From Blasia pusilla (taxonomy: Eukaryota): a DNA stretch of 64,000 nucleotides. Positions 7,201 to 64,000 of this stretch are shown one piece after another (position 1 is the first letter of the stretch; each line of letters starts with the position of its first letter). Made by a program: the position numbers and the translations under genes. The stretch spans positions 32,426,001 to 32,490,000 of the forward strand of contig CM114271.1 in NCBI GenBank assembly GCA_050084515.1, given 5' to 3'. The notes below the pieces were generated by a model. That model had not been told where the DNA came from, did no database searches, and saw only the letters and a list, made by a program, of their open reading frames with translations.

Positions 7201-7209
7201 GATCTCGTT

Positions 7210-7316
7210 TGTCGTACGAATCCACATCGTCATACAACATACATCGCTGACATACCATACTCACATACATACATAACATAGATGAGAGCATCCACAAACA
7301 TAAGTGTACCACAACT
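7210..7316 (-). repeat. Repeat Y2 (107 bp), forming the 3' terminus of copy 1
   Basis: Direct repeat of 7685-7791. Ends ...TACGACA against host flank. Confidence 0.93.
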
Positions 7317-7682
7317 GAAATCCGTGGAAGACCTACTGTCATAAAACATGTATAGAATCACATACAATCGAGCCAAACCCACTCCACGATGGGAGAATCT
7401 AGGTCGAAGCTTGCGGGAAACACCATAGCCAAGAGCTCTACTCACTACCAAGGCTAACTCCCAACGCAACAGGCTCAACTCAAAGAACTAACTGTTCTTT
7501 GAGTGCACTCCACCTTATATCCTCCAACCTAAGAGCGGGCCTAATGGAAAAGTCACCCCCAATTGAGTAACCCCCAACCCTATGTATGAAACTGCATCTC
7601 TACCTAGCCACTACGGTCCTACATAAGGTATGGCCTCTACTAGCACACTATACTCTACGACATAATCCGTATGGTCATGACA
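7316..7682 (-). repeat. Second copy X2 (367 bp) of the terminal repeat, sandwiched between Y1 and Y2
   Basis: Near-identical to 14989-15356. In element sense it is preceded by Y1 plus GC and followed by Y2. Confidence 0.95.
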
Positions 7683-7684
7683 GC

Positions 7685-7791
7685 TGTCGTGCGAATCCGA
7701 TTCGTCATACAACATACATCGCTGACATACCATACTCACATACATACATAACATAGACGAGAGCATCCACAAACATAAGTGTACCACAACT
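7685..7791 (-). repeat. Repeat Y1 (107 bp), immediately after the PPT
   Basis: Direct repeat of 7210-7316 (5 mismatches by eye). In element sense it ends ...GCACGACA, followed by GC and then the TGTCATG start of X2. Confidence 0.93.
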
Positions 7792-7800
7792 CGCCCCCCT
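7792..7800 (-). promoter_or_regulatory. Polypurine-tract-like plus-strand primer (AGGGGGGCG)
   Basis: G-rich run directly abutting the start of Y1 and downstream of the pol stop codon. No comparable tract abuts X2. Confidence 0.65.
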
Positions 7801-7963
7801 AACTCGCGGTTAGGTCCCTCTAACTCCCATGTAGCCCTATACATCTACTACATGCTATACACCTTCGTGGGTGCACGAATCAGAAGGCGGGGTGCTAGGT
7901 TGCCCCATCGTTAGTCGTACATCTGTAATCCATATCATGCAAAGATCAAGTCATCTACCTCTC

Positions 7964-8545
7964 CTAAGTACATTGAGGACAAACCCACCTTCCAGTAGGA
8001 ACAACATCCATACGTGGAGTCAAACACATCATGTGCCAACCCCTAGAACACCGATCACACACCAACATACGGGTTGCGTTACCAGCAGACCCACACAACA
8101 TGCACCTCAAGCAAGCACGTATCATGGCTAAGCTTGGGTTAACAATACCATCCATATTTGGAAGATGATATGGTGCACAATTACGCACATGGTCCTTCCA
8201 AACAACTCCATCACGATCCTCCAACATGAGAACTCCAGAAGTTAACACCTCGTGCACTCGTAAAATAGTGCGGCCTACTGTCACATCCAACATTGTCGGT
8301 GCAATCTGCTGCAAATAGACATAGTCCCCTACATGGAACCTAGGAATCGATGGTCGATAACCTCCACCCTGAATGGTTGCATACCGCAACGTATCCCTGT
8401 GTTGAGCAATGGCAAGATTCTCAAAGGCTGTTGGCATAACTCTCCGAAAGAGCTCTCCCCGTTGAGAACACACTCTCATCCACATCTGTGAGTGATCAAG
8501 GTTCACCACCTCACTAGACTCCCGACGAATTGCTGCGAGCAAGTG
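7964..8545 (-). pseudogene. Integrase C-terminal region (SH3-like segment) ending in a PHD finger
   Basis: FHVGDYVYL...HVRNCAPY resembles an integrase CTD. It is followed by the C4-H-C3 pattern CMLC...CDRC...WHMMC...WVCPQC at 8104-7967. The first part matches copy 2 at about 63810-64000. Confidence 0.85.
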
Positions 8546-9404
8546 ACTCCCAAACCACCTGGATAGATCACATGACCCAAGTACTCAACATCCTCATGGA
8601 AGAACTTACACTTTCCTGGATGCAAACGTAGACCATGAGCTTTCAACCGCTCAAACACCATCTGCAAATGTATCTGATGCTCCTCCACCGTGTTACTGAA
8701 CACCAAGATATCATCAATGTAACACGGAACAAAATCCAACCCTGCTAGGATCCTATCCATAACTCTCTAAAACTCGGCAGGTGCATTCTTCAACCCAAAG
8801 GGTAAGAATTTCCACTGGTACAAACAATCCTTGCCATGAGAGTTGACACCCCAAAATGTTGTCTTGGCCTGTCACTCTCCCGAATCGGAAATTGATGGTA
8901 TCCTGCCCGAAGATCCAAAGTACTGAAAATCTTTGCATGTCCCATCACATCAAAGATCTCCTCAGGTGTAGGCATGGCATACCTATTGGCCTTGGTTTGC
9001 CGATTGAGAGGACGGTAATCTCCACACATCTGCCTATCCGTGTAGTTGCCATGCATATCCTTTTTAGCAGGTATGACAATGGCTGATGCATACTCTCCAT
9101 GTGACAACTCCACTAATCCAGCCTCCAAAAGGTCCAACGTCCTACTCTGAATCAGGTCCCTCTCCATATCACTATATCGGTAGGGACGACGGAAGATTGG
9201 CGTATCACTAGCCAAATCAATCCGTATACTGGGTCCAATCAGAGAACCCAACTCCTTCATGCTAAAGGCAAAACAACTCCTATAAGCACGTAGGAATTGT
9301 GTCAAGCGTCGTTTCTCACCTCTCGTAAGCTTGGGCCCAAGTAATGGCTCCCAAGTCTCCTCCACTGGCACACTAGAGGGAGAGGATGATGCCATTGGTC
9401 GCAC
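8546..9404 (-). pseudogene. Reverse transcriptase of copy 1 (C-terminally deleted)
   Basis: PIFRRPYRYS, CGDYRPLN, FSTLDLRAGYHQ, PFGLKNAPAEF, YIDDILVFS, KCKFF..VEYLGH: Ty3/gypsy RT motifs with one frameshift. Confidence 0.95.
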
Positions 9405-9639
9405 ATAACCCCCTCACAAGATGGTACACCCTTAGCTACACCATCATCTCGAGCAAATAACTCCTCCACCAAAGCATGAGCAACCAACTCCACATGCCCA
9501 CCATTACATCCCATTTACTCCAAGGATGCAAAATACTACTCTCCTCGCCCCACCGATGTCTCTCTTGCCCCGGTAGCCATCAAGCTCATTACAAGGGGTG
9601 GAAGACCCACAGACATAGTCCGAAGTTGATTTGCTCGCC

Positions 9640-10591
9640 ATACCAAGACTCAAAATCCAAGTCAAACAATTCAGGTCCATGGCCTGACCCAACACATGAC
9701 GTCGTGAAGCCTCAGAAATGGAAGCAACCGATGTCACACCAGTAGCAAATCCCATCACACGCTCTCTCTCATTAGCGTTAGGCTCCACCAACTGTCGCAC
9801 ATGAGAATCCCATACAAGCCCGGGACCACCTTCCTTGTATGCATGTGACGAGGGAAAAGTCACAAATGTGGGTAGTGCCATCCTAGGCTGGCCCACACGG
9901 TTCAACACTGCCATGGGTGACCCATCAATAACCCTCACCACCTGAGAAAGTCGCCCAATATCCAAGTTACTATCCACTGTAAGGCAAGGATCCCGCTGCA
10001 CTGCATCATATGCTCAGCGTAGAACCTCCCTAGGCAACAAGTTTGTCCACCACAAGCGTGGACGATGTGCACGCGAGGCAACTCGCGCTGCATCCAACAA
10101 CACCGCTGGTCCAATCCAAGACCGCATCTCATGAACACTCGCCATCATCCGGGTCCGAGCGTCACCCAACAATGAACATTCTCCAGAATGTAAGCTAGAG
10201 CACGTGTCTGATGAACCTGAAGATTTTGTAACACCCGTAACATCTCCCAAAACAATCGAGACCTAGGGTCGTGAAATCCCTCACCACGACCAGCACGTGT
10301 ATGACCCTGACATGGCCATCCAGAAATCACCAAATCCACAGGACCAACCCTCTCAAGGTCCTGCGCCCCCAACAATGCAATGTGTGACGGCAAAGCACGC
10401 TGGTACCCACGAATAGCTAATGACGGCAATAACTCAGGATATCTCCGCATCAACTGACCAATATGTCGGGATGAGACTCTCTGGGCCGTCTCATCTCGCT
10501 CCATATACACGTATCTCCGCACAGGAATACCGGCCTACAACACTGCAGCCAAACCACTGCTAATCCCACCAAAGAGATCTAACACACAAAT
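9640..10591 (-). pseudogene. DNMT3-like cytosine-5 DNA methyltransferase domain within pol (copy 1)
   Basis: Motif I VLDLFGGISSG, motif II ERD, motif IV VDLVISGWPCQG (PCQ 10315-10307), motif VI YILENV (ENV 10183-10175), motif VIII AHRPRLWWTNL, motifs IX-X ERERVMGF...RRHVLGQAMDL. The motif order is unpermuted. Two stops and one 1-bp frameshift are present. Confidence 0.92.
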
Positions 10592-10989: not shown

Positions 10990-11333
10990 ACTATCAACCA
11001 AGTCTATAAGACAGTCCAGTAATCCATCTGAAAACCCATCGGGTACAATAATGCTCCTCCAACTAGTACATCATACGACTCGGCTGATGTGACTACCGCA
11101 GATACTCCCAACCGAGAACTATCAGTCGCATGATCTGGTCTCAACTGTACAGAAAACTTCTCCCCTGTCATGAATTGAGACCTATCATTGGCTCCTCCAA
11201 GTGATGTTTGAATCTGGAATGGGCAAGGCTCAAGCTCTCACCTCCGAATACCCAAACCAATACATGCCGCCTTTCCCAACATCAAAGGTTGGGCACTAGA
11301 GTCTAACAAGACTCTATCTGGTCTATACACCTG
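10990..11333 (-). pseudogene. Aspartic protease domain of copy 1
   Basis: Reading through the TGA at 11334-11336 gives RVLLDSSAQPLMLG...YDVLVGG (retropepsin D(S/T)G-like site, here DSS, plus the DVLVG flap motif). It has an 8-bp deletion relative to copy 2. Confidence 0.8.
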
Positions 11334-13433
11334 TCATGTAGGACTCACCAATCGGAATATCCCACTCCGGTTGTCCAACATACATACACCAGGTGTAAGC
11401 CTCTCACGATCAATGGCTGGCCGGGCTAGTAATGCAACCATCTTCGCCGCTGTTGCCTGCCAAGTAGCACTGGTACTCAATGCTACACCTAACATAGAGG
11501 GTCGCTCCACCGCAACACCCTCATCCACCTCAGCACGTGTAGTAGTAACACCCCCACGTCCACACAACGTGGCTGCTAGCTGAAATACATGAGCTAAGTC
11601 AACTCCTAAAGCCATCAGCTCCATGGCCGAAAATAATGGGGATCCCAACACTGAAGTTGCCATCCGCAATACTGCATTGGATGTTGCATCCGTGTCTACT
11701 ACACGCGATGTAGATGCCTCAGTCCCCACTGTCGGCTCAATAGGCTGCATAGGAACCATGGATGGAGTCCTAAGCACCCCTGACAACAAGAATGAATGGG
11801 GAAGCCTAGCCTGCCTCCCAGCCTCATCCCTCTGTGGGTCCAACTCCATAGTAGCACCACGTGGCTCTGACGCTCGAGTGGCTCCTCTCGTAACTGCAGC
11901 CGATGCCTCAACCTGTGCTGCACTCGCCATATAAGAGAGATCATCCCCTCCATAAGAGGTGGAAGCCCCTGCTCCCAAACCTGATCTATGTTGGATACCA
12001 GCCATAGTAGCCAACTTCTGCTCCAACTGCTCAATCATGGCAGCCATAGATGACTCTGTCGTAGTGGTAGGGGTAGCCACCGTAGGCTCTCCAACCACCG
12101 GTCCACCTCTACCACCTCTACCACCTCGGCCTCTCGGAGCTACTCCACCGCGGCCGCGGCCTGATCTCAACTCTGGATGAAGATCAAAGCAACGCTCTAG
12201 AGGATGACCTGGTCTCCCGCAATGATCACACTGAGTTGGGGCCGACTGAGGCCCATCCTCCAAAGTCCGTCTCCCATCCTCTTGGGGACAAAACTTCCTA
12301 ACATGATCACCTCCACATGTCCAACATGATTGTCCTTGCTGCAGGGCAGCAAATGAAGGCAATGGTCTCTGCGCAAGTGTCCCTCTTGGACCAGACTGAG
12401 GTCGTGTGTACCCCCCACGACTCCCACTACTACTACCACCACCACTACTACGAGATTGTGAGGTGGGTTGCTGAACATGAGCACTAGTAGTTGTATCCCT
12501 ACTGAATGCGGATGTCACCACTCTCTCCTTCACCATGTTAAGCTCAATCTTCTCAGATAGAGCAAACACATGGGTCAATGTGGGTGAATCATCACTCATA
12601 AGAGTAGCATCACGTACCTTGCGGCGCAACTCTCTGTCCAAGATCCCATACCAAAATTGGACTGCCTAAGCCTCAGTCACACCCTGGGTAACTAAAATCA
12701 AGCGTCGCATACGAGTGTATGCCTCACGAAGACTCTCACCAGTCTTTCGCTCAAATTCTTGAAGACTCTTCAACTTCTCTGTCTTCACTCCCTGATAGTT
12801 TCTCTTCAACCTCTTGAAGAACTCTGCAACCGGGCTAAACGATGGTGGGGCACTAGTACCCCCACAGGTACCCCTACTGGTACCTCCACTAGTACCCCCA
12901 CTGGTACTCCGGCTCGTACTCGTACCACTCAACGTCGGGCTGGCTGGCATAGTAGGAGCACTACTACCAATACCACCATGGGTGATAGACACATAGCTTG
13001 GAGACCAATATTGTCTCCACGCCTCAATCTCAGCAACATGGTCCTTCCTAAACTCATGGTAATCATCCAAGTGTTGAAACAACCCCTTCCAAGCCAAGAA
13101 GGGTGTAAACAACGTGGCGTTCCGCAACATCTGCATATCACACCACGTATCAAACTCCTGCATGAAGTCCTCCAACTCAATGGTGCCCACTACACCCGAG
13201 TATCGTCGTGGGCCCTTCATGGCCCCATATATCCCGTCCATGTCCCAAATCAATGGAGCTGCAACACTCGATAACAACGTAGAAGACTCGGTGTTTGGAA
13301 CACCCTCGTCCTCCTCTTCATCAACCGTCGGAAGTGGAAAAGGTAGCCGATACCTAAATCCACTCCGTGTGAAAGCACCACTGTCCGCGCCACGGTCCCC
13401 AACCTGACCACCTGACAGCTCCGTGATGACCAA
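11334..13433 (-). pseudogene. gag: gag of copy 1 (capsid-like region, two CCHC-type zinc knuckles, RGG tract)
   Basis: ORFs 12666-13433 and 11334-12641 share one frame split by a TAG. Motifs CWTCGGDHVRKFC, CDHCGRPGHPLERC and RGRGG repeats are present. The first in-frame ATG is at 13241. Confidence 0.85.
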
Positions 13434-14977
13434 CGCCGATGCTGCACCACCACCAAATTATCACCACTAAGTAACCAAGTGACGTCGATGTCGCTATACT
13501 ATTCTTGCTCTACTAGCTATGGGTGTAGGCAACCTAACCTATCATCACCACAAGAAGCCTCCCACAATCTATTGGTCATCACTCCAACCTCATTACCGGT
13601 AGCACACAGGAATAACACTACTCTGGAAATCAGCGTCAACCTTAACAATGGGCCCGCAAGCAAGAAGCAACGATGGAGGGGGTCCAAACACAAGAAGTCC
13701 AACGAAAACCCTCCAATCGCAAATGGAAATCAAGATAACACAATCCACAAACGTGGCGCCCCCTGAATCCACAAAACCCACCACACAATTCTAACGCAAT
13801 AGCTACTCCGCCGCGGGTCGATGACGTGCTAGTCGAACTCGCACCACCTGAAAATATCACCTAAATGGAGAGGCTACACCGTACTATGCGCTAGAGGTCC
13901 ATCAACCAAAAACCTGAGATGCATAAAATGCCTAACACATCTCCGAACAGCACCAAATGAGCTACACCCGTGTGTACACTGGCATAGTTAAGAACTCAGC
14001 AGTTAAGCGTCTTCCAGGCAGAATAGCCCAAAGATGGGTGACCAGTTATGCAACACTCAAATCACAAATCCTGCAAAAACTGCCTCACGCCAAGCAAGCA
14101 AGCAAGCTTGCTTGCTTGCTCCTTGCTCCTTGCTCCGCCTGCAAAAGCTTGCTTGCTCCTTGCTCCTTGCTCCTTGCTCCGCCTCTCACGCCCACTCGCC
14201 ACCAGTTGCCTCGAAACGCCGAGAAATGCTCGAGACATGCCCCGTTCGCCCCATTCGCCATGCTTCGCTATGGAGAAAGGCCCAACCAGGGCGCCCCCAA
14301 CGAGATAGGCGTCTCCAACAATGAACGAGTCACCAACCAACCAGCCCCTCCGATCCGCTGTCCACCATAGCCAGATCTTGAACTAGTCCGCAAAATTTCG
14401 ATCAGTAATTACTTCACAAATCCTAGACCAAAATTGAATCTATTTCAACCAAAATTCAATTGACCACCATAGCTATCTCTCCACAAAAAATCAGCTACAA
14501 CCAAGCTCTGCACTCCGAGCTAAAAATCAGACAAACTTGTTGTCCATACTCCTCCAAAATCGCAAATCCGATAGCGCTTCCGCCTAGTTTCATGCACGCA
14601 GAAATCCACAACGCTCCACACACCCAAGCAGATAGCGTCACATGAGATCACAATACAAGTAGCAACAGGAACCTCTCACCCGATCTGGAGGAACTTCAAG
14701 AGAGCTTCCGCACTCCAAGCTCTCCACATCAGAAAACTCTCCACATCAGAAAATCGTCGAACACGAACCAGAATCTTCAATACTTGATAACTTCCAACTC
14801 CCTTGAAGAAATCTGGCGATCTAAAGCGCGTTGGAAATCTCTCAGCAAGGCGCTTCTTTCCCAACCAACCACGCACCAGATTCACACCTCCAACATAGGC
14901 CACAAGCCACAAACATCCACGGCTGACTACACAATCAGCCCTAACCAGATCCTAGTGATCCACAATCGATCTACGTC

Positions 14978-14989: not shown

Positions 14990-15356
14990 GAAATCCGTGA
15001 AAGACCTACTGTCATAAAACATGTATAGAATCACATACAATCGAGCCAAACCCACTCCACGATGGGAGAATCTAGGTCGAAGCTTGCGGGAAACACCATA
15101 GCCAAGAGCTCTACTCACTACCAAGGCTAACTCCCAACGCAACAGGCTCAACTCAAAGAACTAACTGTTCTTTGAGTGCACTCCACCTTATATCCTCCAA
15201 CCCAAGAGCGGGCCCTAATGGAAAAGTCACCCCCAACTGAGTAACCCCCAACCCTATGTATGAAACTGCATCTCTACCTAGCCACTACGGTCCTACGTAA
15301 GGTATGGCCTCTACTAGCACACTATACTCTACGACATAATCCGTATGGTCATGACA
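14989..15356 (-). repeat. 5' terminal repeat X1 (368 bp, TG...CA) of copy 1
   Basis: Direct repeat of 7316-7682; by eye 4 substitutions and one 1-bp indel. Contains TATAAG at 15192-15187. Confidence 0.95.
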
Positions 15357-15653
15357 GGTTTGCATCACTCTAACAATGGCATGTGAGCATGAAATAAATA
15401 GCCCATAGGAGAATAAGGCCTCGGAGGCTGTAGACCCTAGAATGCAGGTCGCCTCTTTATCAGTGGCTGTTGTGAGCAAGATCCTAATTGTCTAAAGGAA
15501 AAAAAAGAATATGGGAGCGTTCAAAAAATTGAAATGTCATCATTACACGACCCCACAACCTAAGAGTCGTCGTAAAGAATCAGCACAAAGAACTCAAAGG
15601 ACCTAAAATCTAAACCTCCCACAAAGCTAAAATGACTCGTGTCAATTTCCAAC

Positions 15654-19406: not shown

Positions 19407-21616
19407 TCACGGTAATTCATGAGCCGGTGAGGGTCCAGGTGCGACAGCGAAGTGCATTGTTCGTGCTGGTACTGCTTGTAACATAATGGCTACTTCTGCG
19501 GCAGCCATAGCTGCTTCCTGCTATCAATAAGAACAAACTGTCAGACCTTTACAGGATAAAATAAAGCCTTAGAATGCAGGTTAACGACGATGTAGCCACG
19601 CATTGCAAACTTCACAATCAACGTTGAATGAGATAAGTCATCGTGTGGCTGCAATTTACCTGGCGCTGTCTTCTACGTTGAAGAATGTTCATTGCACGCG
19701 CCATTATGTAGCAAGGTAGTAGGAAGCCGGCTGCTCGAAGGAAGAAGAGCTGATCCCGAAATAGGAAGGAAAGCAAATATGTCAGGTAAGGACGTCTGAA
19801 ATTGGACCTTTCCAATTAACTACCCACATTGTACGTACAACTCACTCATACACTAATTTGGCTGAAGATGGCCAAAAATGAGACACGGCATCACTCATGG
19901 GGAATACTTAAGAAGCCATTCACTCTGAAAAGCTTTGGGCATCGAAGTGTCAACATTCAAGGTAATAAGTCTACTAAGCAATCGTATGATTGTACCCAAA
20001 GCTCAGGTTGGAACAAACCGTGAAGAAAGCAGACGCATCTTCGTCAGCAGTTGCCGCTGCCATCAAAAGCGCATGCCGCAGGAGCAAGAGAGCCATCAAC
20101 TGTAGAGCAAACTTACACGATTAAAAGCCAATCAACATGAAAGATAAGATGGGGACAGTCACCAAGAATTGCTGGGGGACAGACTGACGAGGCAGAGACA
20201 TGCACTTTGATTTCCCTGACACTCGAGAACCGAGAAAATCAAATTCAATTCCAGAACGACCCCGAATAAGGATATATGGAACTTACGATGAGAGCGGCAG
20301 ATCGGCAACACGCTGCGCCACTAGCATTTGCCGCGGCATATTCATCATATTCTGCGTCGAGCAAATGTCGCTCGGCCGCTGCCATGGCCAAGATGCGTGG
20401 ATCGCGAAGGTCTATGGAATGGGCACCGGTGATCCCCCAATCTCCACTGTCAATCCAGAAAGAAAGATAAGCGGAGGGAGTCAGTCGACGGATAGTGACA
20501 GGGGCTCAGCCTCCTAAACACAACATCTATTCATGACGACAGTGAAGACCTTGGTATACTTTTGACTCAAACAGGACTCGAAAGCAGATTGTACCAACCC
20601 TACAGGAAAAATGTGATTACCTAAGTTCAATGGGAGTTCCATCAGAGTGATGCGGCCGAGGAGGAGCTACGTATCCGCTCTTGTATGGCTGTTACAAGAG
20701 TACGACAAAGGCGAGTCAACATTTGTGGGCGGACTTACGAACGAGTACAACAATGTTGGAAGCCGACGCGGAATGACCCTAGAGAAGACGAGCAGGAGCT
20801 AAATGCCCCATGATATCAGGCATCGCCTGTCAAGAATACACTTGACCCCATCACATTCAAGTTTTAATTGGCGGCATGATAGGAGTACTTCCAGTTCAGA
20901 AACACACTCGTGGACGGTCACGCCCGTGACCGTCCACGACACCCACAGTCCGAAAGTACGCACCTGATGACAAATCTCGCAGATCGTATCTCCTTTCTCA
21001 TTGCACCAGCGCTGGACGCACTTGCGATGGGCGAACTGGAACAATACCATGATAAACACATGTGAGATTCTTACGGCCGGTAGTACTTAATTCGGTTGGG
21101 AGCATCCTCTCTTGGAATGACTACTGTGCGCCGGAAACAAGAGGAAACATCCACATAGCTGGGGAACAATCCACACCACATGGACGTCGAGGAGCTGGTA
21201 ATCGAACGCTAGCGAAGATACTCAACCATAAACTCTTGACAGCCTACCTTTACGCTGCCAGAGCAAGCACATGGGGTCTCGAGATTGTTGACATCATCCT
21301 CCTCTTGGCAAATTCGGCACTCGGCAATGGCACCAGATCCAGCAGTGGAAGCTCCATCGGGTAAAACATCACTGTTCGTTCCATCAAGAGCATCGGACAC
21401 AGGAACCGGGGAATAAACAAAGCCCTCTTGCGCAGAGAGCGCAGACTCCTTCAATACATCACCGCAGTTCACAGATATAGTGTGTTCCACAGGAGTAGCA
21501 ATAGGAAAAGATCGACCAGAACTTCCCCCGTCCTGAGAAGAATTGACAGCTGAACCAGCCAATAACCGCTCCACATCCAGACTCAGATGGTCTCCCATTC
21601 TTTCGGGACCGCTCAT
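19407..21616 (-). CDS. RING-CH (RINGv/MARCH-type) E3 ubiquitin ligase with DUF3675-like transmembrane C-terminus, 316 aa, 7 coding exons
   Basis: Exons 21616-21248, 21035-20964, 20688-20621, 20446-20287, 20099-20019, 19749-19660 and 19517-19407 all have GT-AG borders and join in frame (951 nt). Protein contains ECRICQEED...[31 protein letters not shown] (C4HC3), then CRSAALILMALLLLRHAL and LFFLRAAGFLLPCYIMARA. Confidence 0.95.
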
Positions 21617-22900
21617 TACCACAGCCAATCCCTAGGAAGTATGCGGGGAGCACTAGTGTAACTGTGGGCACAGAGGTGGGGGCGCCAAGGGAGAGTCTTT
21701 AGCCTCCTCTGGACAATATCTGGTACTCCTGAAATTTGACCACGAAATTGAGTAAGAGCGAGTCACCGAAGGAGGCCTTGTAGTGAGTCGATAGAGTCCC
21801 AACCGGAGTCACACAATCAATCCACGAGGTTCGAAAGAGAAAGCAATAGAAGCTCCAGAGTGGTACCACAGACCGATTTCTTGCTGTGTGGTTCTACACA
21901 GCCCACTTATGCTGTGTGGTCCTACAAAGCCCGAGAGTCATCGGTACGTGACTCTCGGGCTTAAAACACCAGCACCACCCAAATCGGGGCGGAGGTAGAG
22001 TAATACCTGCAGTTCGCACAGCGACTCGGTAGAGATTAGGCCTCGAGCTTGAAGATCTGCCCAATGATCTCTGTGACTACGTTTCGACTACCAGTGGATG
22101 GACGACGAACACCTGACTGCCACACAAATTCCTCCTCTTGCGTGCTACCTACTTAGGTCACCAGCGGCTGCTTGAAGCTGCTGCAATTCGTTCCAGACGT
22201 ATCCCAATCTCCCAGAAGCAGGTAAGGCGAAGGTCACCTGGCAATCACACTACCACATCTCGCTTGTCGACCAAGTTATCGTCCAAGTTAATCCAACCAA
22301 CGCCTGTGACGCCACAATGCTCGCTCGTGCCGGACGACGGAGTCCCTCTATCCTTGCGTCTATCTCTCCCCCTCTCTCTCCCTCTGTGCCACACCACTCT
22401 CTTCCCCTTCCTCCGTTTCCACTCCCCGCGTTTATAGAAGCGCGCACACACCGAAACGTACACGAACAGACCCGCTAGCTGCTGCTCCGCCTCTCGCCGC
22501 TGGTCTTATACCGACTACGCCCGCTCCGCGCCCTGTTCGAAACCAACAAGGCTCGCCACGTCCTCGCTCAGAAAGCAGAAACGGTATTATCGCACGCTTC
22601 TCTCGGCTCTCTCGGTCCATTGCAGTAGGATAGTAACCCTAATGCTTAACCCCGGTCTGCCCCGTGTCAGATATGAACCCTCTGGCGACCGATAGTTTCT
22701 AGTTCTCTCTGGGAACTTCGCCTCCTGTTCGCTCGATCGATCGTTCGTTAGTTCGCAGCAGGTAGAGGCGTCGGGGACGCTGCTACAGAGGGACAGGTGG
22801 CGCTCCACACCAACAACAGTCCGCGTACCGAGAATATAAAACCTTTTTTAAAAGGGGACTCCCGGCGTGTCAAAACGGTCAAAACCATTTATGACCGGCG
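21617..22900 (-). promoter_or_regulatory. Probable long intron-containing 5' UTR and promoter of the RING-CH gene
   Basis: CpG-retaining region with candidate acceptor tttcag near 21730 and donor cag|gtatta near 22006, plus GA-rich tracts. Boundaries are uncertain. Confidence 0.4.
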
Positions 22901-25422: not shown

Positions 25423-25606
25423 AAGATAGTCGGGGAAAACCTTACCTCCAAGTTAACCATGCGTTTGACTCATTCTTTTTTTCTTTCTTTCATCTCTTTT
25501 GGGTATTGCCCAGCAAGATAGTCGGGGAAAACCCTACCTCCAAGTTAACCATGCGTTTGACTCATTCTTTTTTCCTTTCTTTCATCTCTTTTGGGTATTG
25601 CCCAGC
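25423..25606. repeat. Tandem duplication, 2 x 92 bp
   Basis: Unit aagatagtcggggaaaacc...gggtattgcccagc starts at 25423 and again at 25515; the copies are near-identical. Confidence 0.9.
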
Positions 25607-28272: not shown

Positions 28273-28796
28273 ATCCACTTTATTATAATAACAAGCCTCA
28301 ACGAGGACAAAATAAGGTAATGACAACTCAAAAGAGGGAGAATTAAAAAAATGCAAAAAGAAACTAGGAACTAGCCAACACAAACACCCACTCAACGCGT
28401 TACACAATTGATCACATGAAACAAATTTGACAAGAGTATTTGTGGTTGGTCAAACATGAACGGACGATGAGGGCGAGCGACCGCCACCGTTTCTACACGA
28501 CGTTTGAATGCCAAAGCTTGTGCACGTTATAAGGCCAATGAGATGCATTGCCGAAAATAAGTAGTGACTACACACAAAGAGAAGGATTATGAGAAGGGGC
28601 AAGGTCATGATTCTCAAGGGAATGGTGAGCATATGATTTGAGGAAAGTATTAAAAGATACATGTAAATGACCGAATACTTCCACTGTGAAAAGAGTAAAT
28701 CCATGGTTTGCATGTCTCACAGCATAACTGATTTCCTTGATTCTTGTTGTTGCTTCGGCCACTGAACCTTTAGTATGTGTGGCACGATACACCAAG
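28273..28796 (-). mobile_element. 5'-truncated copy of the CRE-like non-LTR element (RLE C-terminus and 3' UTR)
   Basis: Translation VYRATHTKGSVAEATTRIKEISYAVRHANHGFTLFTVEVFGHLHVSF parallels 50977-51537. It shares the 3' end AATAAAGTGGAT with the copy at 50850. Confidence 0.85.
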
Positions 28797-55435: not shown

Positions 55436-55804
55436 TGTCATGACCATACGGATTATGTCGTAGAGTATGGTGTGCTGGTAGAGGCCATTCCTTATGTAGG
55501 ACCGAAGTGGCTTGGTAGAGATGCGGTTCCATACATAGGGTTGGGGGTTACTCACTTGGGGGTGACTTTCCCAGTAGGGCCCGCTCTTAGGTTGGAGGAT
55601 ATAAGGTGGCTTGCCCTCAAAGAACAGTCAGTTCTTTGAGTTGAGCTCATATGCGTTGGGAGTTAGCCTTGGTAGTGAGTAGAGCTCTTGGCTATGGTGT
55701 TTCCCGCAAGCTTCGACCTAGATTCTCCCATCGTGGAGTGGGTTTGGCTCGATTGTATGTGATTGTAAACGTGTTTTATGACAGAAGGTCTTTCATGCAT
55801 TTCA
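55436..55804 (+). repeat. 5' terminal repeat X1 of copy 2 (369 bp, TG...CA)
   Basis: Homologous to 14989-15356. TATAAG at 55600-55605. No Y sequence lies upstream. Confidence 0.92.
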
Positions 55805-55816
55805 CTCAAAGAACTG
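55804..55816 (+). promoter_or_regulatory. Self-priming type primer-binding site of copy 2
   Basis: ACTCAAAGAACTG is the reverse complement of CAGTTCTTTGAGT at 55629-55641. The A at 55630 is 30 nt after the TATA start. Confidence 0.8.
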
Positions 55817-57188
55817 GAGTAGATCGATGGTAGCTTCGATTGTAGATCAATAGGATCTGGTTAGGGTTGATTGTGTACTCAGCCGTGGATATTCGGGGCT
55901 TGTTGCCTATGTTGGAGGTGTGAATCAGGTGCGTGGTTGGTTGGGAAAGAAGCGCCTTGCTGAGAGCTTTCCAACGCGCTGTAGATCGCCGGATTTCGTG
56001 AAGGGAGTTGGAAGTTATCAAGCATTGAAGATTCTGGTTCGTGTTCTCGACAGTTTTCTGATGTGGAGAGCTTGGAGTGCGGAAGCTCTGTTGAAGTTCA
56101 TCCAGATCGGGTGAGAGGTTCCTATTGCTACTTGTATTGTGATCTCATGTGAAGCTATCTGCTCGAGTGCGTGGAGCGTTGCGGATTTCTGCGTGCATGA
56201 AACTTGGCGGAAGCGCTGTCGGATTTGCGGTTCTAGAGGTGTATGGACAACAAGTTTGTCTGATTTTTAGCTCGGAGTACGGAGCTTGGTTGTAGCTGAG
56301 TTTTTGTGGGGAGATATCTATGGTGGTCAATTGAATTTTGATCGAAACAGATTTGATTTCGGTCACGTATTTGTGAAGTAATTTCTGATCGAAATTTCGC
56401 GGACTAGCTCAAGGTCTGGCTATGGTGGACAGCGGATCGGAGGGGCTGGTTGGTTGGTGAGGCTTCGAGGCAACTCGTGGTAGCTCGGGGCGAGTGGGCG
56501 TGAGAGGCGGAGTAAGGAGCAAGGAGCAAGCAAGCAAGCTTGCTTGCTTGGGCGTGAGGCAATTTTTGCAGGATTTGGGATTTGAGTTTTGCATAATGGT
56601 CACCCATCTTTGGGCTATTCTCGCTGGAGGACGCTTAATCGCTGAGTTCTTAACTATGCAGGTGTCTCATGTTGTAGCTCATTTGGTCTTTGTTCGGAGA
56701 TGTGTTAGGCGCTTTATGCATCTCAGGTTTTTGGTTGATGTACCTCTAGCGCATAGTACGGTGTAGCCTCTCCATGCAGGTGATATTTTCAGGTGCTGAG
56801 AGTTCGACTAGTACGTCATCGACCCGCGGTGGAGTAGCTATTGCGTTAGAATTGTGTGGTGGGTTTTGTGGATTCAGGGGGCACCACGTTTGGTGGATTG
56901 TGTTACCTTGATTTCCATTTGCGGTTGGAGGGTTGTCGTTGGACTTCTGTGTTTGGATCCCCTCCATCGTGCTTCTTCTTGCTTGCGCCCATTGTTAGGG
57001 TTGACGCTGATTTCGAGTAGTGTTACCTGTGTGCTCCGATAGTGGGGCTGCAGTGATGACCCGTAGACCGTGGGAGGCTTCTTGTAGTGATGAGAGGTTA
57101 GATTGCCTACACCCATAGCTAGTAGAGCTACAATAGTAGAGCGACATCGACGTCACTTGGGTAATTTGGTGGTGGTGCGGCATCGGCA

Positions 57189-59691
57189 TTGGTCATCACG
57201 GAGCTGTCGGGTGGTTTGGTTGGGGACCGTGGTGCGGACAGTGGTGGTTTCACACGGAGTGGATTTAGGTATCGGCTACCTTTTCCACTTCCGACGGTTG
57301 ATGAAGAGGAGGATCAGGGTGTTCCAAACACCGAGTCTTCTACGTTGTTATCGAGTGTTGCAGCTCCATTGATTTGGGACATGGACGGTGGATATGGGGC
57401 CATGAAGGGCCCACTAACGATACTCGGTGCAAGTGGGCACCATTGAGTTGGAGGACTTCATGCAGGAGTTTGATACGTGGTGTGATATGCAGATGTTGCG
57501 GAACGCCACGTTGTTTACACCCTTCTTGGCTTGGAAGGGGTTGTTTCAGCACTTGGAAGGACCACCCATGGATGATTACCATGAGTTTAGGAAGGACCAT
57601 GTTGCTGAGATTGAGGCATGGAGACAATATTGGTCTCCAGGCTATGTGTCTATCACCCATGGTGGTATTGGTAGTAGTGCTCCTACTATGTCAGCCAGCC
57701 CGACGTTGAGTGGTACGAGTACGAGCCGGAGTGGGGTACCAGTGGAGGTACTAGTGGGGTACTAGTGGAGGTACTAGTGCCCCACCATCGCTCGATCCGT
57801 TGCGAGTTCTTCAAGAGGTTGAAGAAGAACTATCAGGGAGTGAAGACGGAGAATTTGAGGAATCTTCAGGACTTTGAGCGAAAGACTGGTGAGAGTCTTC
57901 GTGAGGCATACACTCGTATGCGACGCTTGATTTAAGTTACCCAGGGTGTGACTGAGGATCAGGCAGTCCAATTTTGGTACGGGATCTCGGACAGAGATTT
58001 GCGCCGTAGGGTACGTGATGCTACTCTTATGAGTGATGATTCACCCACATTGACCCATGTGTTTGCTTTATCTGAGAAGATTGAGCTTAACATGGTGAAG
58101 GAGAGAGTGGTGACATCCGCATTCAGTAGGGATACAACTACTACTTCTCGTGTTTAGCCGCCCACCTCACAGTCTCGTAGTAGTGGTGGTGGTAGTAGTA
58201 GTGGGAGTCGTGGGGGGTACACGCATTTCACTCAAAGAACTAGGTCACCTCAGTCAAGTCCTAGAGGGACATTTGTGCAGAGACCATTGCCTTCATTTTC
58301 TGCCCCGCAGCAAGGACAGTCATGTTGGACATGTGGAGGTGATCATGTTAGGAAGTTTTTTCCCCAAGAGGATGGGAGACGGACTTTGGAGGATGGGCCT
58401 CAGTCGGCCCCAACTCAGTGTGATCATTGCGGGAGACTAGGTCATCCACGAGAGCGTTGCTTTGATCTTCATCCAGAGTTGAGATCAGGCCGTGGCCGTG
58501 GTGGAGTAGCTCCGAGAGGCCGAGGTGGTAGAGGTGGTAGGGGTGGTAGAGGTGGACCAGTGGTTGGAGAGCCTACGGTGGCTACCCCTACCACTACGAC
58601 AGAGTCATCTATGGCTGCCAAGGATTGAGCGTTGGAGCAGAAGTTGGCTACTATGGTCGGTATCCAAAGATAGATCAGTTCAGGGAGCAGGGGCTTCCAC
58701 CTCTTATGGAGGGGATTATCTCTCTTATATGGCGAAAAGATAGGTTGAGGCATCACCAGCAGCGATTCTGAGAGGAGCCACTCGGCGTCGAGCCACGTGG
58801 TGCTACTTGTGGAGTTGGACCCACAGAGGGGTGAGGTGGGAGGCAAAGCTAGGCTTCCCGGTCATTCTTGTTGTCGGGGTGCTTAGGACTCCATCCATGG
58901 TTCCTACGCGAGCCTATTGAGCCGACAGATGGGGATCGAGGCATCGACATCGCGTGTAGTAGGCACGGATGCAAAGCATCCAATGCAAGATTGCGGATGG
59001 CAACCGGTGTTGGGATCCCCTTTGTTTTCGCCACGGAGTCGATGGCTTTAGGAGTTGACTTAGCTCATGTATTTTGATTAGCGACCACGTTGTGTGAACG
59101 TGGGGTATTATGCTACACGTGTTGAGGTGGATGAGGGTGTCGCGGTGGAGCGATCCTCTATGTCGGGAGTAGCATTGAGTACCAGTGCTACTTGGTGCAA
59201 AGCAGCGCGCGGCGAAGATGGATGCATTACCAGCCCGGCCAGCCATTGATCGTGAGAGGCTTACACTTGGTGTATGTATGTTGGACAACCGGAGTGGGAT
59301 CTTCCGATTGGTGAGTCCTACAGACAGGGTGTATAGACCAGATAGAGTCTTGTTAGACTCGGTGCCCAACCTTGATGTTGGGAAAGGCGGCATGTATTGG
59401 TTTGGGTATTCGGAGGTCGAGCTTGAGCCTTACCCATTCCAGATTCAAACATCACTTGGAGGAGCCAATGATAGGTCTCAATTCATGACACGGGAGAAGT
59501 TTTTTGTACAGTTGAGACCAGATCATGCGACTGATAGCTCCCGGTTGGGAGTATCTGCGGTAGTCACATCAGCCGAGTCGTATGATGTACTAGTTGGAGG
59601 AGCAATATTGTACCCGATGGATTTTCAGATGGATTACTGGACTGAGACAGCGTCTTATAGACCAGGTTGGCAGTCCGGGATGGACGTATGA
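57189..59691 (+). pseudogene. gag: gag and protease of copy 2 (frameshifted)
   Basis: Fragments ELEDFMQEFDTWCD, CWTCGGDH, CDHCGRLGHPRERC, RVLLDS and YDVLVGG match copy 1. Confidence 0.85.
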
Positions 59692-60074
59692 GCCAAGTTC
59701 TGTGAGATTTATTTCTGGGGCTCGACCAGAGGGTCTTCCCAACAAGTGTTAGCATCTGTGGCTGGTTTTAGTGGAGTAGTCACTTGGCCAGGAGACTTTT
59801 TGAGGGTAATGTTTGCAATGGATTCTCCTGCGCATGAGGAGGAAGAGGAGGTCCCTATTTTTGCAGCAAAGTGGCATCCTCATCGTTGGATGTGCCACTT
59901 TGGAGTTCAGCGGTGCACTACGGCAGAGGCGTCGCCTAGTGCGGGAGAGGCTTGGTGTCGTGTTATACCTCACGAGGAAGAGGAGGCCCGGGGTGGACTC
60001 CTACTTCTTGCCCCTGTTAGGTTATCCCCTTTGGATACTACACCCATTGTATGGCAAAGTATCCGCCGGAGGGC

Positions 60075-61030
60075 ATTTGTGTGTTAGATCTCTTTGGTGG
60101 GATTAGCACTTTGGTTTTTGGCGCGATGTTGTAGGCCGGTATTCGTGTGCGGAGATACGTGTATGTGGAGCGAGATGAGACGGCCGAGAGAGTCTCATCC
60201 CGACATATTGGTCGATTGATGCGGAGGTATCTGAGTTGTTGCCGCCATCAGCTATTCGTGGGTACCGGCATGCTTTACCATCACACATTGCATTTGTTGG
60301 GCGCAGGACCTTGAGAGGGTTGGTCCTGTGGATTTGATGATTCTTTGGATGGCCATGTCGGGTCATACACGTCTTTGGTCGGGTGAGGGATTACATGACC
60401 CTAGGTCTCGATTGTTTTGGGAGATGTTACGGGTGTTACGACATCTTCAGTTCATCAGCAGTGCTCTAGCTTACATTCGTGAGAATGTTCCATTGTTGGG
60501 TGACACTCGGACCCGGATGATGGCGAGTGTTCATGAGGTGCGCTCTTGGATTGGACCAGCGGTGTTGTTGGATGCAGCGCGAGTTGGCTCGCGTGCACAT
60601 CGTCCACGCTTGTGGTGGACAAACTTGTTGCCTAGGGAGGTTCTACGTCAAGCATATGATGCTGTGCAGCGGGATCCTCGCCTTACAGTGGATAGTATCT
60701 TGGATACTGGGCGACTTTCCCAAGTGGTGAGGGTTATGGATCGGTCACCCATGGCAGTGGTGAACCGTGTGGGCCAGCCTAGGATGGCACTACCCACATT
60801 TGTGAGTTTTCCCTCGTCACATGCCTACAGGGAAGGTGGTCCGGGGCTTGTATGGGATTCTCATGTACGACAGTTGGTGGAGCCTAATGCTGATGAGAGA
60901 GAGCGTGCGATGGGATTTGCTAATGGTGTGACAGCGGTTGCTTCTATTTCTGAGGCTTCACGACGTCATGTGTTGGGTGAGGCCATGGACCTGAATTGTT
61001 TGACTTGGATTTTGAGTCTTGGTATGGCCG
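60075..61030 (+). pseudogene. DNMT3-like methyltransferase domain of copy 2
   Basis: ICVLDLFGGIS from 60075, GWPC (PC 60353-60358), ENV 60481-60489, RAHRPRLWWTNL and ERERAMGF...RRHVLGEAMDL. Confidence 0.92.
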
Positions 61031-61267
61031 AGCAACGTCGACTTCGGACTATGTCTGTGGGTCTTCCACCCCTTGTAATGAGCTCGATGGCTTTGGGGCC
61101 CGGTAGAGGCATCGGCTGGGGGCGAGGAGAGTAGTATTTTGCATCCTTGGAGTAGATGGGATGTAATGGTTGGGCATGTGGAGTTGGTTGCTCATGCTGG
61201 TGGAGGAGTTATTTGCTCAGATGATGGTAAGGGTGTACCATCTTGTGAGGGGGTTGCGTAGCAGCCA

Positions 61268-64000
61268 ATGGCATCATCCTCTCCCTCTAGTGTGCCAGTG
61301 GAGGAGACTTGGGAGCCATTACTTGGGCCCAAGCTTACAGGAGGTGAGAAACGACGCTTGACACAGTTCCTACGTGCTCATAGGAGTTGTTTTGCCTTTA
61401 GCATGAAGGAGTTGGGTTCTCTGGTTGGACCCGGTATACGGATTGATTTGGCTAGTGATACGCCAATCTTCCGTCATCCCTACCGATATAGTGATATGGA
61501 GAGGGACTTGATTCAGAGTAGGACGTTGGACCTTTTGGAGGCTGGATGAGTGGAGTTGTCGCATGGAGAGTATGCATCAGCCACTGTCATGCCTGCTAAA
61601 AAAGATATGCATGGCGACTACACGGATAGGCGGATGTGTGGAGATTACCGTCCTCTCAATCGGCAAACCAAGGCCGATAGGTATGCCATGCCTACGCCTG
61701 AGGAGATCTTTGATGTGGTGGGACAGGCAAAGATTTTCAGTACTTTGGATCTTCGGGCAGGATACCATCAATTTCCGATTCAGGAGAGTGACAGGCCAAG
61801 ACAACATTTTGGGGTGTCAACTCTCATGGCAAGGATTGTTTGTACCAGTGGAAATTCTTACCCTTTGGGTTGAAGAATGCACCTGCCGAGTTTCAGAGAG
61901 TTATGGATAGGATCCTAGCAGGGTTGGATTTTGTTCCGTGTTACATTGATGATATCTTGGTGTTCAGTAACACGGTGGAGGAGCATCAGATACATTTGCA
62001 GATGGTGTTTGAGCGGTTGAAAGCTCATGGTCTACGTTTCCATCCCGGAAAGTGTAAGTTCTTCCATGAGGATGTTGAGTACTTGGGTCATGTGATCTAT
62101 CCAGGTGGTTTGGGAGTTCAGCAAGCAAAGGTGGAGGCTATTGCACTTATTCCGCGTCCGATAGATGTGAGTAGAGTTCGAGCATTCATGGGATTGGCGA
62201 ACTACTATTGGAGGTATGTGAAGGGATTTAGTGCTATGGCAAAGTCTTTGAACCAATTGCTGAAATCAGATCAAGAGTGGCACTGGGGAGATGATCAGGA
62301 GAGAGCTTTTGTGGAGCTTAAGGCCTAGTTGGTGGCGGCGCCTATCTTGAGGAGACCTATCGAGGGCGCCTATTTGAGTTACGATGATTGGAGTAGGTTG
62401 GGACTTGGAGCGGTGTTGACACAACATGATGATGAGCACATGGAGTTTGTGGTGGCCTATGCAAGTCGTTCGAATAATACAGCGGAGTCGCGCTATAGTT
62501 CATATGAGGGAGAGTGCTTGGCAGTAGTGTGGGTTGTGGCACACTTTAGGTGTTACTTGTTTGGCACACTGATTTACCCTTACCCTTGTTTGATCACCGG
62601 CCGCTCAAGTGGTTGATGGAGTCGGACAAGCTTACAGGGAAGCTTGCACGGTGGGCTCTTATCTTACAGGAGTATGACTTCCAAGTGGTACATAGACCTG
62701 GAGTTGCCAACCTTGATGGTGATGGCTTGAGTAGGAACCCATGTACTAGCCAAGAGGATACAACTGGGGCTAGATGGCATGGCGAGGTTGATGAGGAGAT
62801 GGTGCCAGGTTAGCATGCATCCGCCTTTTTATGTTGGTTAGGGGTGGACTCTAGTATGGAGGATCACATGATATCTTACTCTAGTCAGAGGGTAGATGGC
62901 CAGCCTTCAGATCCTAAGGTTGGAGATGGTGGTACGGATCAGCGTGATATTCATGATGATGCGTTGGTGTTGGAGTTCCTACGGACCAAAGAGGGTGCCA
63001 GGCATAGTGAGTGCCAAGGAGCGAGACCGTGTTCTTCAACGTGCTAAGAGGTATCGATTGGAGGGAACACATATTTCTCGCGTGTGGGAGGATGGTAGAG
63101 TACGAGTAGTGCCACATTTGGCTCAGAGAGAGCGCATTGTGCGACATGCCCATGAGGAGTTGGGACATTTTGGGGTAAAGCGTACGTATAGCTTACTCCT
63201 TGGCCAATATTGGTGGCGTGGCATGCATACTCAGGTGCAGCAGTTGGTGTCACGTTGTATGGTTTGTGACCGGGTGAGGGCATCATTCAATGCCCCTACA
63301 CCACAATTACACCCCTTGCCTATTATGGGGTTGGTTTACCATTGGAGTGTGGACTTTTGCGGGACCGTTACCGTTGGTCGCATGCGACATCATCGATATG
63401 TGTTGGTGATGGTGGAGCACTTCTCCAAGTGGATTGAGTTGGTGGCATTACCGGACAAGGCAAGTGAGGGAACGGCATATGCGTTTCTGGATAGAGTGCT
63501 TAGTCATTTTGGTGCACCAGCTGAAGTGCTGACCGACCCGGGGTATAGAGTTTGTGGTGAGTTTGGTCTTGTGTGACAAGGCGTTGATTGATCATCGGAC
63601 CACGTCTCGAGAGCATCCGAGGCGGATGGTTTGGCTGAGCGTGTGGTTCAGACGGTGAAGAGGGCATTGCACAAGTATGGCCTACAGAAGGGGCATCTTG
63701 GAGACTGGGATATTCAGTTGCCATGGTTAGCCATGGGGTATAGGTTCAGTCGCCAAGCATCCTTGGCTTCCTTCTCACCTTATTTTCTGTTATACGGCCG
63801 AGATCCAGACTTGCCAAAGAAAGCAATTGTCGGGAGTCTAGTGAGGTGGTGAACCTTAATGACCCAAAGATGTGGATGAGGGTGTGTTCTCAGCGGGCGG
63901 AGCTCTTTCGGAGAGTTATGCCAACAACCTTTGAGAATCTTGCCATTGCTCAACACAGGGATACGTTGCGGTATGCAACCATTCGGGGTGGAGGTTATCG
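61268..64000 (+). pseudogene. pol: RT, RNase H and DDE integrase of copy 2 (frameshifted, cut by the window end)
   Basis: RT YIDD. RNase H DWSRLGLGAVL...ECLAVVW...DHRPL...DGLSR. Integrase HHCC (HEELGH...CMVC), WSVDF, VLTD, AERVVQTVK, SPYFLLYGRDP. The order RT-RH-INT is that of Ty3/gypsy. Confidence 0.95.

Follow-up and report, generated by a model that had tools for sequence, protein, structure and literature searches.

A Ty3/Gypsy family of Blasia pusilla with a DNMT3-like methyltransferase ends its integrase in a PHD finger, a conserved stop codon lying between the two

Introduction

The chromodomain of chromoviruses steers their integration, animal DNMT3 reads unmethylated H3K4 through a PHD-like ADD domain, and PHD fingers have reportedly been seen in CR1 LINEs. 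In chromoviruses, the chromodomain sits at the C terminus of the integrase, and PHD fingers in retrotransposons have been called widespread (PMC6673714; bioRxiv 10.1101/2021.11.30.470311). For example, Gypsy-7a_cRei of Chlamydomonas carries one (PMC9940879), and others are cited there and in PMC8557442. KnitGypsy-Dnmt3 of Klebsormidium nitens has Gypsy domains together with DIRS-like repeats (de Mendoza et al. 2018, PMC5890265). The same article states that the role of retrotransposon DNMT3s is unclear and proposes that they methylate cDNA; the K. nitens DNMT was inactive in yeast, which the authors regard as inconclusive, and the term PHD has 0 occurrences in the text, its Fig. 4c or main supplement being places that could show one. 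Among PHD fingers with a known H3 complex, that of ATXR5 holds A1 by Pro60 and Gly62, R2 by Asp41 and Asp44, and T3 by Val59, and grips K4 through main-chain carbonyls (PMC5499861). In-frame stops are used by SIRE1 and MuLV (PMC2194720), and the six bases CAR-YYA form a plant read-through signal that is active with all three stops (PMC2754532).

Gypsy-DNMT3 elements, retrotransposon PHDs, and LTR elements pairing a reader with a methyltransferase are already known. Here, we analyzed a stretch of 64,000 nucleotides of the Blasia pusilla genome (hereafter the window), in which an earlier note, made from the DNA letters, had proposed an element combining a PHD chromatin reader with a DNMT3-like writer. 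What is added is the breadth of the DNMT and PHD pairing, two positions of the DNMT, and a read-through signal; in the literature searched, with most subscription papers outside it, we found no published description of the stop or of a chlorophyte-to-bryophyte pairing of DNMT with PHD.

Results

The minus strand encodes, at exactly 8104..7967, the peptide that the earlier note took for the end of pol, with a TAG directly after it at 7966..7964, whereas the plus-strand reading of 7967..8104 is unrelated and gives no meaningful protein. It matches the Pfam PHD profile at 41.9 bits (E=1e-10; profile cut-off 24), contains all eight C4-H-C3 zinc ligands, and takes the PHD fold when modeled, so that the intact finger proposed at this place is borne out, including by the Pfam search suggested as a check. 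In copy L015 of the same family, RNase H, the integrase zinc finger, the rve core, and the PHD lie within a single open 690-codon frame, and the PHD of the window is the C-terminal, final domain of pol/integrase and not a chance match. The proposal that it takes the place of a chromodomain also holds, because Pfam finds no chromodomain in the window copy or in L015, and none was seen, by eye, among the 120 + 94 (214) relatives listed. In an AlphaFold2 model covering the integrase tail (mean pLDDT 84.4), the finger is preceded, at 8105..8534 on the minus strand, by a long helix, an SH3/Tudor-like five-stranded barrel, and a linker to the PHD. In a fold search, the barrel resembles Tudor/SH3/KOW folds (Z 6-8); no retrotransposon integrase C-terminal domain is among the best 50 fold matches listed for it, and it may still be one.

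The copy that carries this finger (copy 1) extends from 15356 to 7210 on the minus strand, starts with TG, ends with CA, and is dead, with stops and frameshifts throughout and a deletion of ~1.7 kb. Its order is A, gag with two knuckles, protease, C5 methyltransferase, reverse transcriptase (RT), integrase tail, PHD, purine tract, and B-A-B, all on the minus strand. Repeat comparison places the 5' repeat A1, which starts with TG and has no B after it, at 14990..15356. The gag-like region (11334..13457) has two CCHC-type knuckles near 12326..12190 and no Pfam match in copy 1, zf-CCHC being found in relatives; it is followed by an aspartic protease region with stops (11000..11380, catalytic Asp near 11303), where relatives P0237, P0191, and P0202 have the Pfam aspartyl protease. 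The DNMT3-like C5 cytosine methyltransferase (9640..10590; motif I 10579..10565, PCQ 10318..10304, ENV 10183..10175, motif X 9683..9669) is broken by stops and a frameshift, the context of the stop position between ORF1 and ORF2 (9393..9410) is mutated, and the RT (8546..9395; YIDD 8721..8710) is frameshifted, truncated, and matched by Pfam RVT_1 in two pieces. At the deletion junction (8534..8546), ~1.7 kb corresponding to 62118-63821 of the second copy is missing (blastn 8546=62117, 8534=63822), which removes the RT end, RNase H, and the integrase zinc finger and core; no catalytic integrase therefore precedes the PHD frame of copy 1. Downstream, a purine tract (7792..7801) lies directly upstream of the 107-bp repeat B1 (7685..7791, ending in CA), followed by the palindromic B1/A2 junction (7679..7688) with its 2-bp spacer between CA and TG, A2 (7316..7682, 98.6% identical to A1), and B2 (7210..7316), which ends in CA and forms the 3' end of the element. 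The target-site duplication at 7206..7209 matches the other flank (15357-15360) at 3/4 bases. A short GGAGCAA-type repeat run occupies 14100-14215 in the 5' leader.

Copy 2, of the same family and 91% identical, lies on the plus strand at 55436..64000 and extends ~1.1 kb past the window; its layout is complete, with RNase H and integrase core, and its 4-bp target duplication is perfect. Between its DNMT and RT, at 61259..61270 on the plus strand, an in-frame TAG is followed by CAG-CCA (CAR-YYA) and an ATG. The earlier note had suggested looking for its PHD just beyond the window, where the finger is indeed present but frameshifted near the last cysteine pair. The window also holds a broken, different retroelement at 50850-54200 on the minus strand with a partial second copy at 28273-28796; it has an RT (Pfam RVT_1 E=1.4e-8), no LTRs were seen, a CxxxHD-like motif occurs in its downstream frame, and it is probably non-LTR or DIRS-like. 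There is also a 92-bp tandem duplication (98%) at 25423-25608.

The element is a Ty3/Gypsy element of the KnitGypsy-Dnmt3 kind. Protease, RT, RNase H, and a DDE integrase occur in the Ty3/Gypsy order, and, in 40 long fetched loci of the family, DNMT-RT-RNaseH-integrase-PHD was found in 28 and the PHD in 39. The ends are TG...CA, and the 4-bp target duplication is perfect in 18/22 pairs, has one mismatch in 2, and failed in 2 (one of them a script artifact), with no perfect 5-bp duplication among the 22. The family lacks two complete identical LTRs, a trait it has in common with KnitGypsy-Dnmt3; the 5' end has A only (B follows it in 0/25 copies) and the 3' end has B-A-B, which gives the DIRS-like A-coding-B-A-B layout of that element. 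The writer beside the PHD proved DNMT3-like, as had been proposed: 26/26 solved-structure matches are DNMT3A/3B/3C (best E=4.7e-6) and the motifs are in canonical order, unpermuted, an assignment made from PDB matches and motif order without a DNMT tree; the domain is intronless within the coding region. Elements of the DIRS/PAT type have a tyrosine recombinase, no DDE integrase, and no target duplication, and the rve integrase and 4-bp duplications rule out such an identity here. The PHD at the integrase end and the absence of a chromodomain by Pfam speak against a chromovirus. Phygy elements prefer NCGN targets (PMC6317226), and CG falls within the first four flank bases in only 9/70 ends, so this identity was rejected. 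As regards the repeats, the split A...B-A-B arrangement is combined with a DDE integrase, and B1 meets A2 in a 10-bp palindrome resembling an LTR-LTR circle junction. Copies L016 (139-9465), L009, and L006/L024 stop at B1, leaving A-coding-B; as the two flanks of L016 agree in a 4-bp target duplication, either B1/B2 recombination took place or the integrase acted on the internal end. A1/A2 identity has a median of 94.6% in 25 copies. Family copies show 3-8 gap openings per kb, some of which may be errors of the assembly.

The family is abundant in the genome. A first look gave 10,230 candidates for the PHD region, and all 150 that were scored matched; the B/A junction pattern has 546 exact genome matches, as against 0 for a reversed control, and 40 evenly spaced 1.2-kb samples put the family at 17.5% of the sampled sequence of contig C1. 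To pick copies without regard to the PHD, 80 of the 90 contig C1 junction matches were fetched. The PHD was found in 78 of these 80, contrary to the objection that it might be absent from other copies; it is near full length in 75, among which 32 have it ungapped, open, and with all eight ligands. A whole DNMT in one open frame is present in only 1/40 long copies. Rare variants have a pN/pS of 0.97 in the PHD and 0.5-1.1 across all six regions, as expected for decay. Changes of the C>T/G>A kind affect 6.6% of CG, 9.4% of CHG, and 1.8% of CHH sites, a bias that is the trace of host methylation. A case for relaxed selection on the PHD from shared non-synonymous variants (7 vs 0) was set aside, since C>T/G>A substitutions in a CG or CHG context account for 7 of the 8 changes concerned.

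Contig C1 has 90 junction matches where its length would predict 96, and their even distribution along it (KS p=0.16) argues against confinement of the copies to one heterochromatic block. When 40 flanks were compared with 40 evenly spaced controls (after removal of 9 and 5 stretches that consisted mainly of family sequence; 10 and 12 contained such sequence), no difference was seen in GC content (p=0.98), in CpG o/e (0.54 in flanks and 0.51 in controls, p=0.72), or in CWG o/e (0.51 in flanks and 0.70 in controls, p=0.06). The idea that the element steers itself to H3K4me0 chromatin is weakened by this lack of a visible insertion bias; however, insertions of this age, judged by base composition, are a poor guide to target choice, and the comparison speaks neither for nor against avoidance of K4me3 promoters. 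Near copy 1, at a distance of ~6 kb, a RINGv host gene exon (E=1.7e-5) lies at 21209-21631 on the minus strand.

Beyond Blasia, the pairing of a DNMT3-like domain with a PHD that the earlier note had described for one element is recurrent. A search with the integrase C-half and PHD, a query that favors PHD-bearing matches, listed 120 relatives, of which, counted by eye, 112 have a Pfam PHD and none a chromodomain. The nearest named ones are from Marchantia and Calypogeia, and the named sources also include Klebsormidium, Chromochloris, Haematococcus, Tetrabaena, Pleodorina, and Cymbomonas. Using profiles built here on 94 long relatives, selected by a length filter that favors DNMT-bearing proteins, we found DNMT and PHD together in 83, a PHD with no DNMT detected in 7 (two of which have 600 residues of DNMT-free sequence before RT), and a DNMT without PHD in 4. 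In 75 of the 94, the DNMT immediately precedes the integrase, and in 10 it precedes RT. DNMT-anchored metagenome loci, mostly near-copies from a few samples, have a PHD in 27 of the 28 long enough to hold one. The lineage hence shows two DNMT sites, between RNase H and integrase (in most members, including chlorophytes) or between protease and RT (in a streptophyte-containing group). A FastTree integrase tree (135 rows, midpoint root), a quick method with no bootstrap, unites the window family, Calypogeia, and both K. nitens proteins in a 39-row group with local support of 97, placing the family in the same lineage as the K. nitens elements; no member of this group has the DNMT beside the integrase. 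Because the tree is midpoint-rooted, it gives no order of the DNMT-position events. The polyproteins P0136, P0156, P0183, P0212, and P0043 also list PF01585, presumably a G-patch. The bryophyte proteins P0217-P0231, P0252, and P0253 (Marchantia polymorpha), P0221 (Calypogeia), and P0216 and P0233 (Sphagnum) are fragments of the element; they are annotated as DNA methyltransferases (hypothetical proteins) and could thus inflate bryophyte DNMT gene counts.

These relatives bear on whether the PHD is structural or vestigial, with no part in target-site choice, a reading that we consider very improbable. It would account for the absence of a visible insertion bias and for the neutral decay of the finger in the genome, but every region of the dead copies decays alike. 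Between families, moreover, the PHD has a dN/dS of 0.49 against metagenome relatives (21 pairs, range 0.26-0.89, all <1), and relatives ranging from chlorophytes to bryophytes, with 33-88% identity, retain the zinc ligands and the H3-facing motif. The PHD is thus kept by purifying selection between families, less tightly than the enzymes, its value being the highest of six regions, with the other five at 0.12-0.26.

The earlier note held that the finger resembles readers of unmodified H3 more than ING-type readers of H3K4me3. By sequence, the PHD matches DPF, KMT2C/D, CHD4, ATXR5, KDM5, BAZ2, BHC80, and UHRF1 fingers, with BAZ2A/B, UHRF1, BHC80, and KDM5 also near the top, and no ING-type finger is among the best 60 of 77 matches. 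The top fold match in 48,161 chains is the ATXR5 PHD-H3 complex (5VAB; Z 9.6, rmsd 1.3 A, 52 residues), on which the model, a cross-braced PHD fold, superposes at an rmsd of 0.9-1.3 A. By spacing, the element PHD retains the equivalents of ATXR5 Asp41, Val59, Pro60, and Gly62 (VVPTGRW), that is, the Pro-x-Gly of the A1 pocket and the Val of the T3 pocket. In the 174 fingers that could be parsed out of 214 relatives (40 were not parsed), PxGxW is found in 140 and the Asp41 equivalent in 169, whereas the Asp44 equivalent, a Ser in the element, is Asp in only 10. The cage tryptophan of K4me3 readers stands two residues before the ligand histidine; that position is Gly in 155 and Trp in 1 of the 174 relatives, and Gly in 44/44 ungapped family copies, which makes an H3K4me3 (ING-type) reader unlikely. 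The resemblance to unmodified-H3 readers therefore stands as regards the best fold match and the missing cage, and holds in part as regards the acidic pair for H3R2, of which the Asp41 member is kept and the Asp44 member replaced. The net charge of +3 (clade median -3) is unfavorable for binding a basic tail. The class that the earlier note had suggested, the unmodified-H3 type over the ING type, is thus a fair one.

The charge invites another reading, namely that, in this branch, acidic residues were lost as the DNMT left the integrase and that the PHD has exchanged the H3 tail for another partner, either a host protein or DNA of the nucleosome or the target. PHDs of relatives with the DNMT beside the integrase have a median charge of -4 (7/84 at zero or above) compared with +1 (18/27) for those with RNase H beside the integrase, the window PHD combines its charge of +3 with the loss of the Asp44 equivalent, and the PHD dN/dS exceeds that of the enzymes. 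However, the fold is conserved together with the motif of the A1 pocket and the equivalent of Asp41, ATXR5 itself needs no acidic side chain for K4, which it holds by main-chain carbonyls, and a charge contrast between related tree groups amounts to about one event, not many. A change of partner is a possibility that we hold as doubtful, though not far-fetched.

The relation of the PHD to the methyltransferase depends on the sequence between DNMT and RT. DNMT motif X and the RT leader share a frame in 15/21 copies, yet an in-frame stop lies between them, and a single polyprotein would be made only with read-through. In the 34 anchored family copies (4 more without an anchor being excluded), TAG is found at this place in 25 and TAG-CAR-YYA in 17. 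A stop (TAG, TAA, or TGA) followed by CAR-YY occurs in the RT frame in 46/51 metagenome loci and on the reverse strand in 0/51; these loci, for the most part near-copies out of a few samples, usually read CAA-CCC, the sixth base being off consensus (full CARYYA in 5/56), and the stop contexts include distant members with ~46% DNMT identity. Database proteins point the same way: several Gag-protease-DNMT proteins end 94-100 residues past motif X, and RT-to-PHD proteins start separately; K. nitens and some other relatives, on the other hand, have a single ORF. The conserved stop is probably leaky and read-through used, judging from this context. Since the stop lies after protease and DNMT, the DNMT would be made at the level of Gag and the integrase-PHD at that of read-through; the ATG after the stop would allow re-initiation as an alternative. 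Whether by read-through or by re-initiation, the stop separates DNMT and PHD, so the two parts most likely do different jobs, and the PHD would not be an ADD-like appendage of the DNMT in the branch of the window.

This weakens the analogy with the DNMT3 ADD domain drawn in the earlier note, in which an ADD-like PHD would bring the DNMT to H3K4me0 chromatin, where the insertion site or the new copy would be methylated in place. Such coupling draws on the co-occurrence of DNMT and PHD in 83/94 long relatives, on the DNMT lying directly before the integrase in 75/94, where a DNMT-integrase-PHD product would be possible, and on the acidic charge of the PHDs in that arrangement; it is more plausible for the chlorophyte arrangement. 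The window family and its near relatives, however, hold the DNMT on the Gag side of the conserved stop with RT and RNase H intervening, and the 7/94 relatives with a PHD and no DNMT detected were found in spite of a filter favoring DNMT-bearers. For the element studied here, we consider a coupled reader and writer unlikely.

Discussion

Our analyses leave us giving about even credence to the PHD being an integrase tether to K4-unmethylated H3, with the DNMT acting apart on cDNA. In active ancestors, Gag-protease-DNMT would have been made in bulk from the RNA, and RT-RNaseH-integrase-PHD at a lower level via read-through of the leaky stop, as its conserved context suggests. The PHD would remain on the integrase and, from its fold and residues, may grip the free K4-unmethylated N terminus of H3 as a chromatin tether; insertions would be steered off H3K4me3 promoters and not into one heterochromatic compartment. 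The DNMT would be a separate product, most likely methylating the element's own cDNA in the particle, and would do so without guidance by the PHD, unlike the ADD domain with DNMT3A. The inactivity of the K. nitens DNMT in yeast, inconclusive in the view of its authors, is a point against this reading.

From an evolutionary point of view, it is tempting, though speculative and in our judgment rather improbable, to see elements with a DNMT3 and an integrase-terminal PHD as an overlooked Ty3 lineage that spans chlorophytes, charophytes, and bryophytes and parallels the chromoviruses, with a PHD as its guide. In the streptophyte branch of this lineage, the DNMT would have left its place next to the integrase for one on the Gag side, ahead of a programmed leaky stop; particles would carry the enzyme at capsid stoichiometry and deliver pre-methylated cDNA, the PHD would read K4-unmethylated H3 for the site, and the A-B-A-B ends with their palindromic junction would imply a non-standard reverse transcription. 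If the PHD does read unmethylated H3K4, this would be a second route, besides the chromodomain, by which LTR elements choose chromatin, and one open to testing in a model plant, as relatives with 72-85% identical domains occur in Marchantia polymorpha. A conserved stop placing the DNMT on the Gag side predicts abundant particle-borne methyltransferase and methylated cDNA.

Compared with described systems, the family is most readily set beside KnitGypsy-Dnmt3 (PMC5890265), with which it shares the Gypsy domain set, a DNMT3-like domain upstream of RT, and DIRS-like repeats, one K. nitens protein (P0038) also bearing rve and PHD. It differs in that the DNMT is in the ORF of RT there, whereas an in-frame stop lies between the two in Blasia, and in that the host is a bryophyte and the family huge, as its junction matches and share of contig C1 indicate. 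Like the chromoviruses, it has a chromatin-reader-type domain after the integrase C-terminal barrel, but the reader is a PHD and the Blasia copies are not gathered in one chromosomal region. In Gypsy-7a_cRei, too, a Gypsy polyprotein carries an accessory PHD, for which an influence on target choice has been proposed (PMC9940879); the legend there puts the PHD between RNase H and integrase and names no DNMT, whereas the Blasia PHD comes last and is accompanied by a DNMT3-like enzyme. The ATXR5 PHD (5VAB) is 42% identical to the element finger, with identical spacing of the four shared H3-contacting residues, but the element finger is basic, has Ser for Asp44, and sits on an integrase instead of a SET domain. 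EpiLTRs are also LTR elements that pair a chromatin reader with DNA methyltransferases; their reader, however, is a chromodomain and their methyltransferases are an adenine methylase and a DNMT4-related enzyme, and the text of that report treats Gypsy-DNMT3 as distinct and leaves the PHD unmentioned (bioRxiv 10.64898/2026.05.21.726589). Finally, TMV, SIRE1, and MuLV share with the Blasia family an in-frame stop followed by CAR-YY(A) between two frames (PMC2754532, PMC2194720), but the Blasia stop comes after protease and DNMT, so that here the methyltransferase itself would be produced at the level of Gag.
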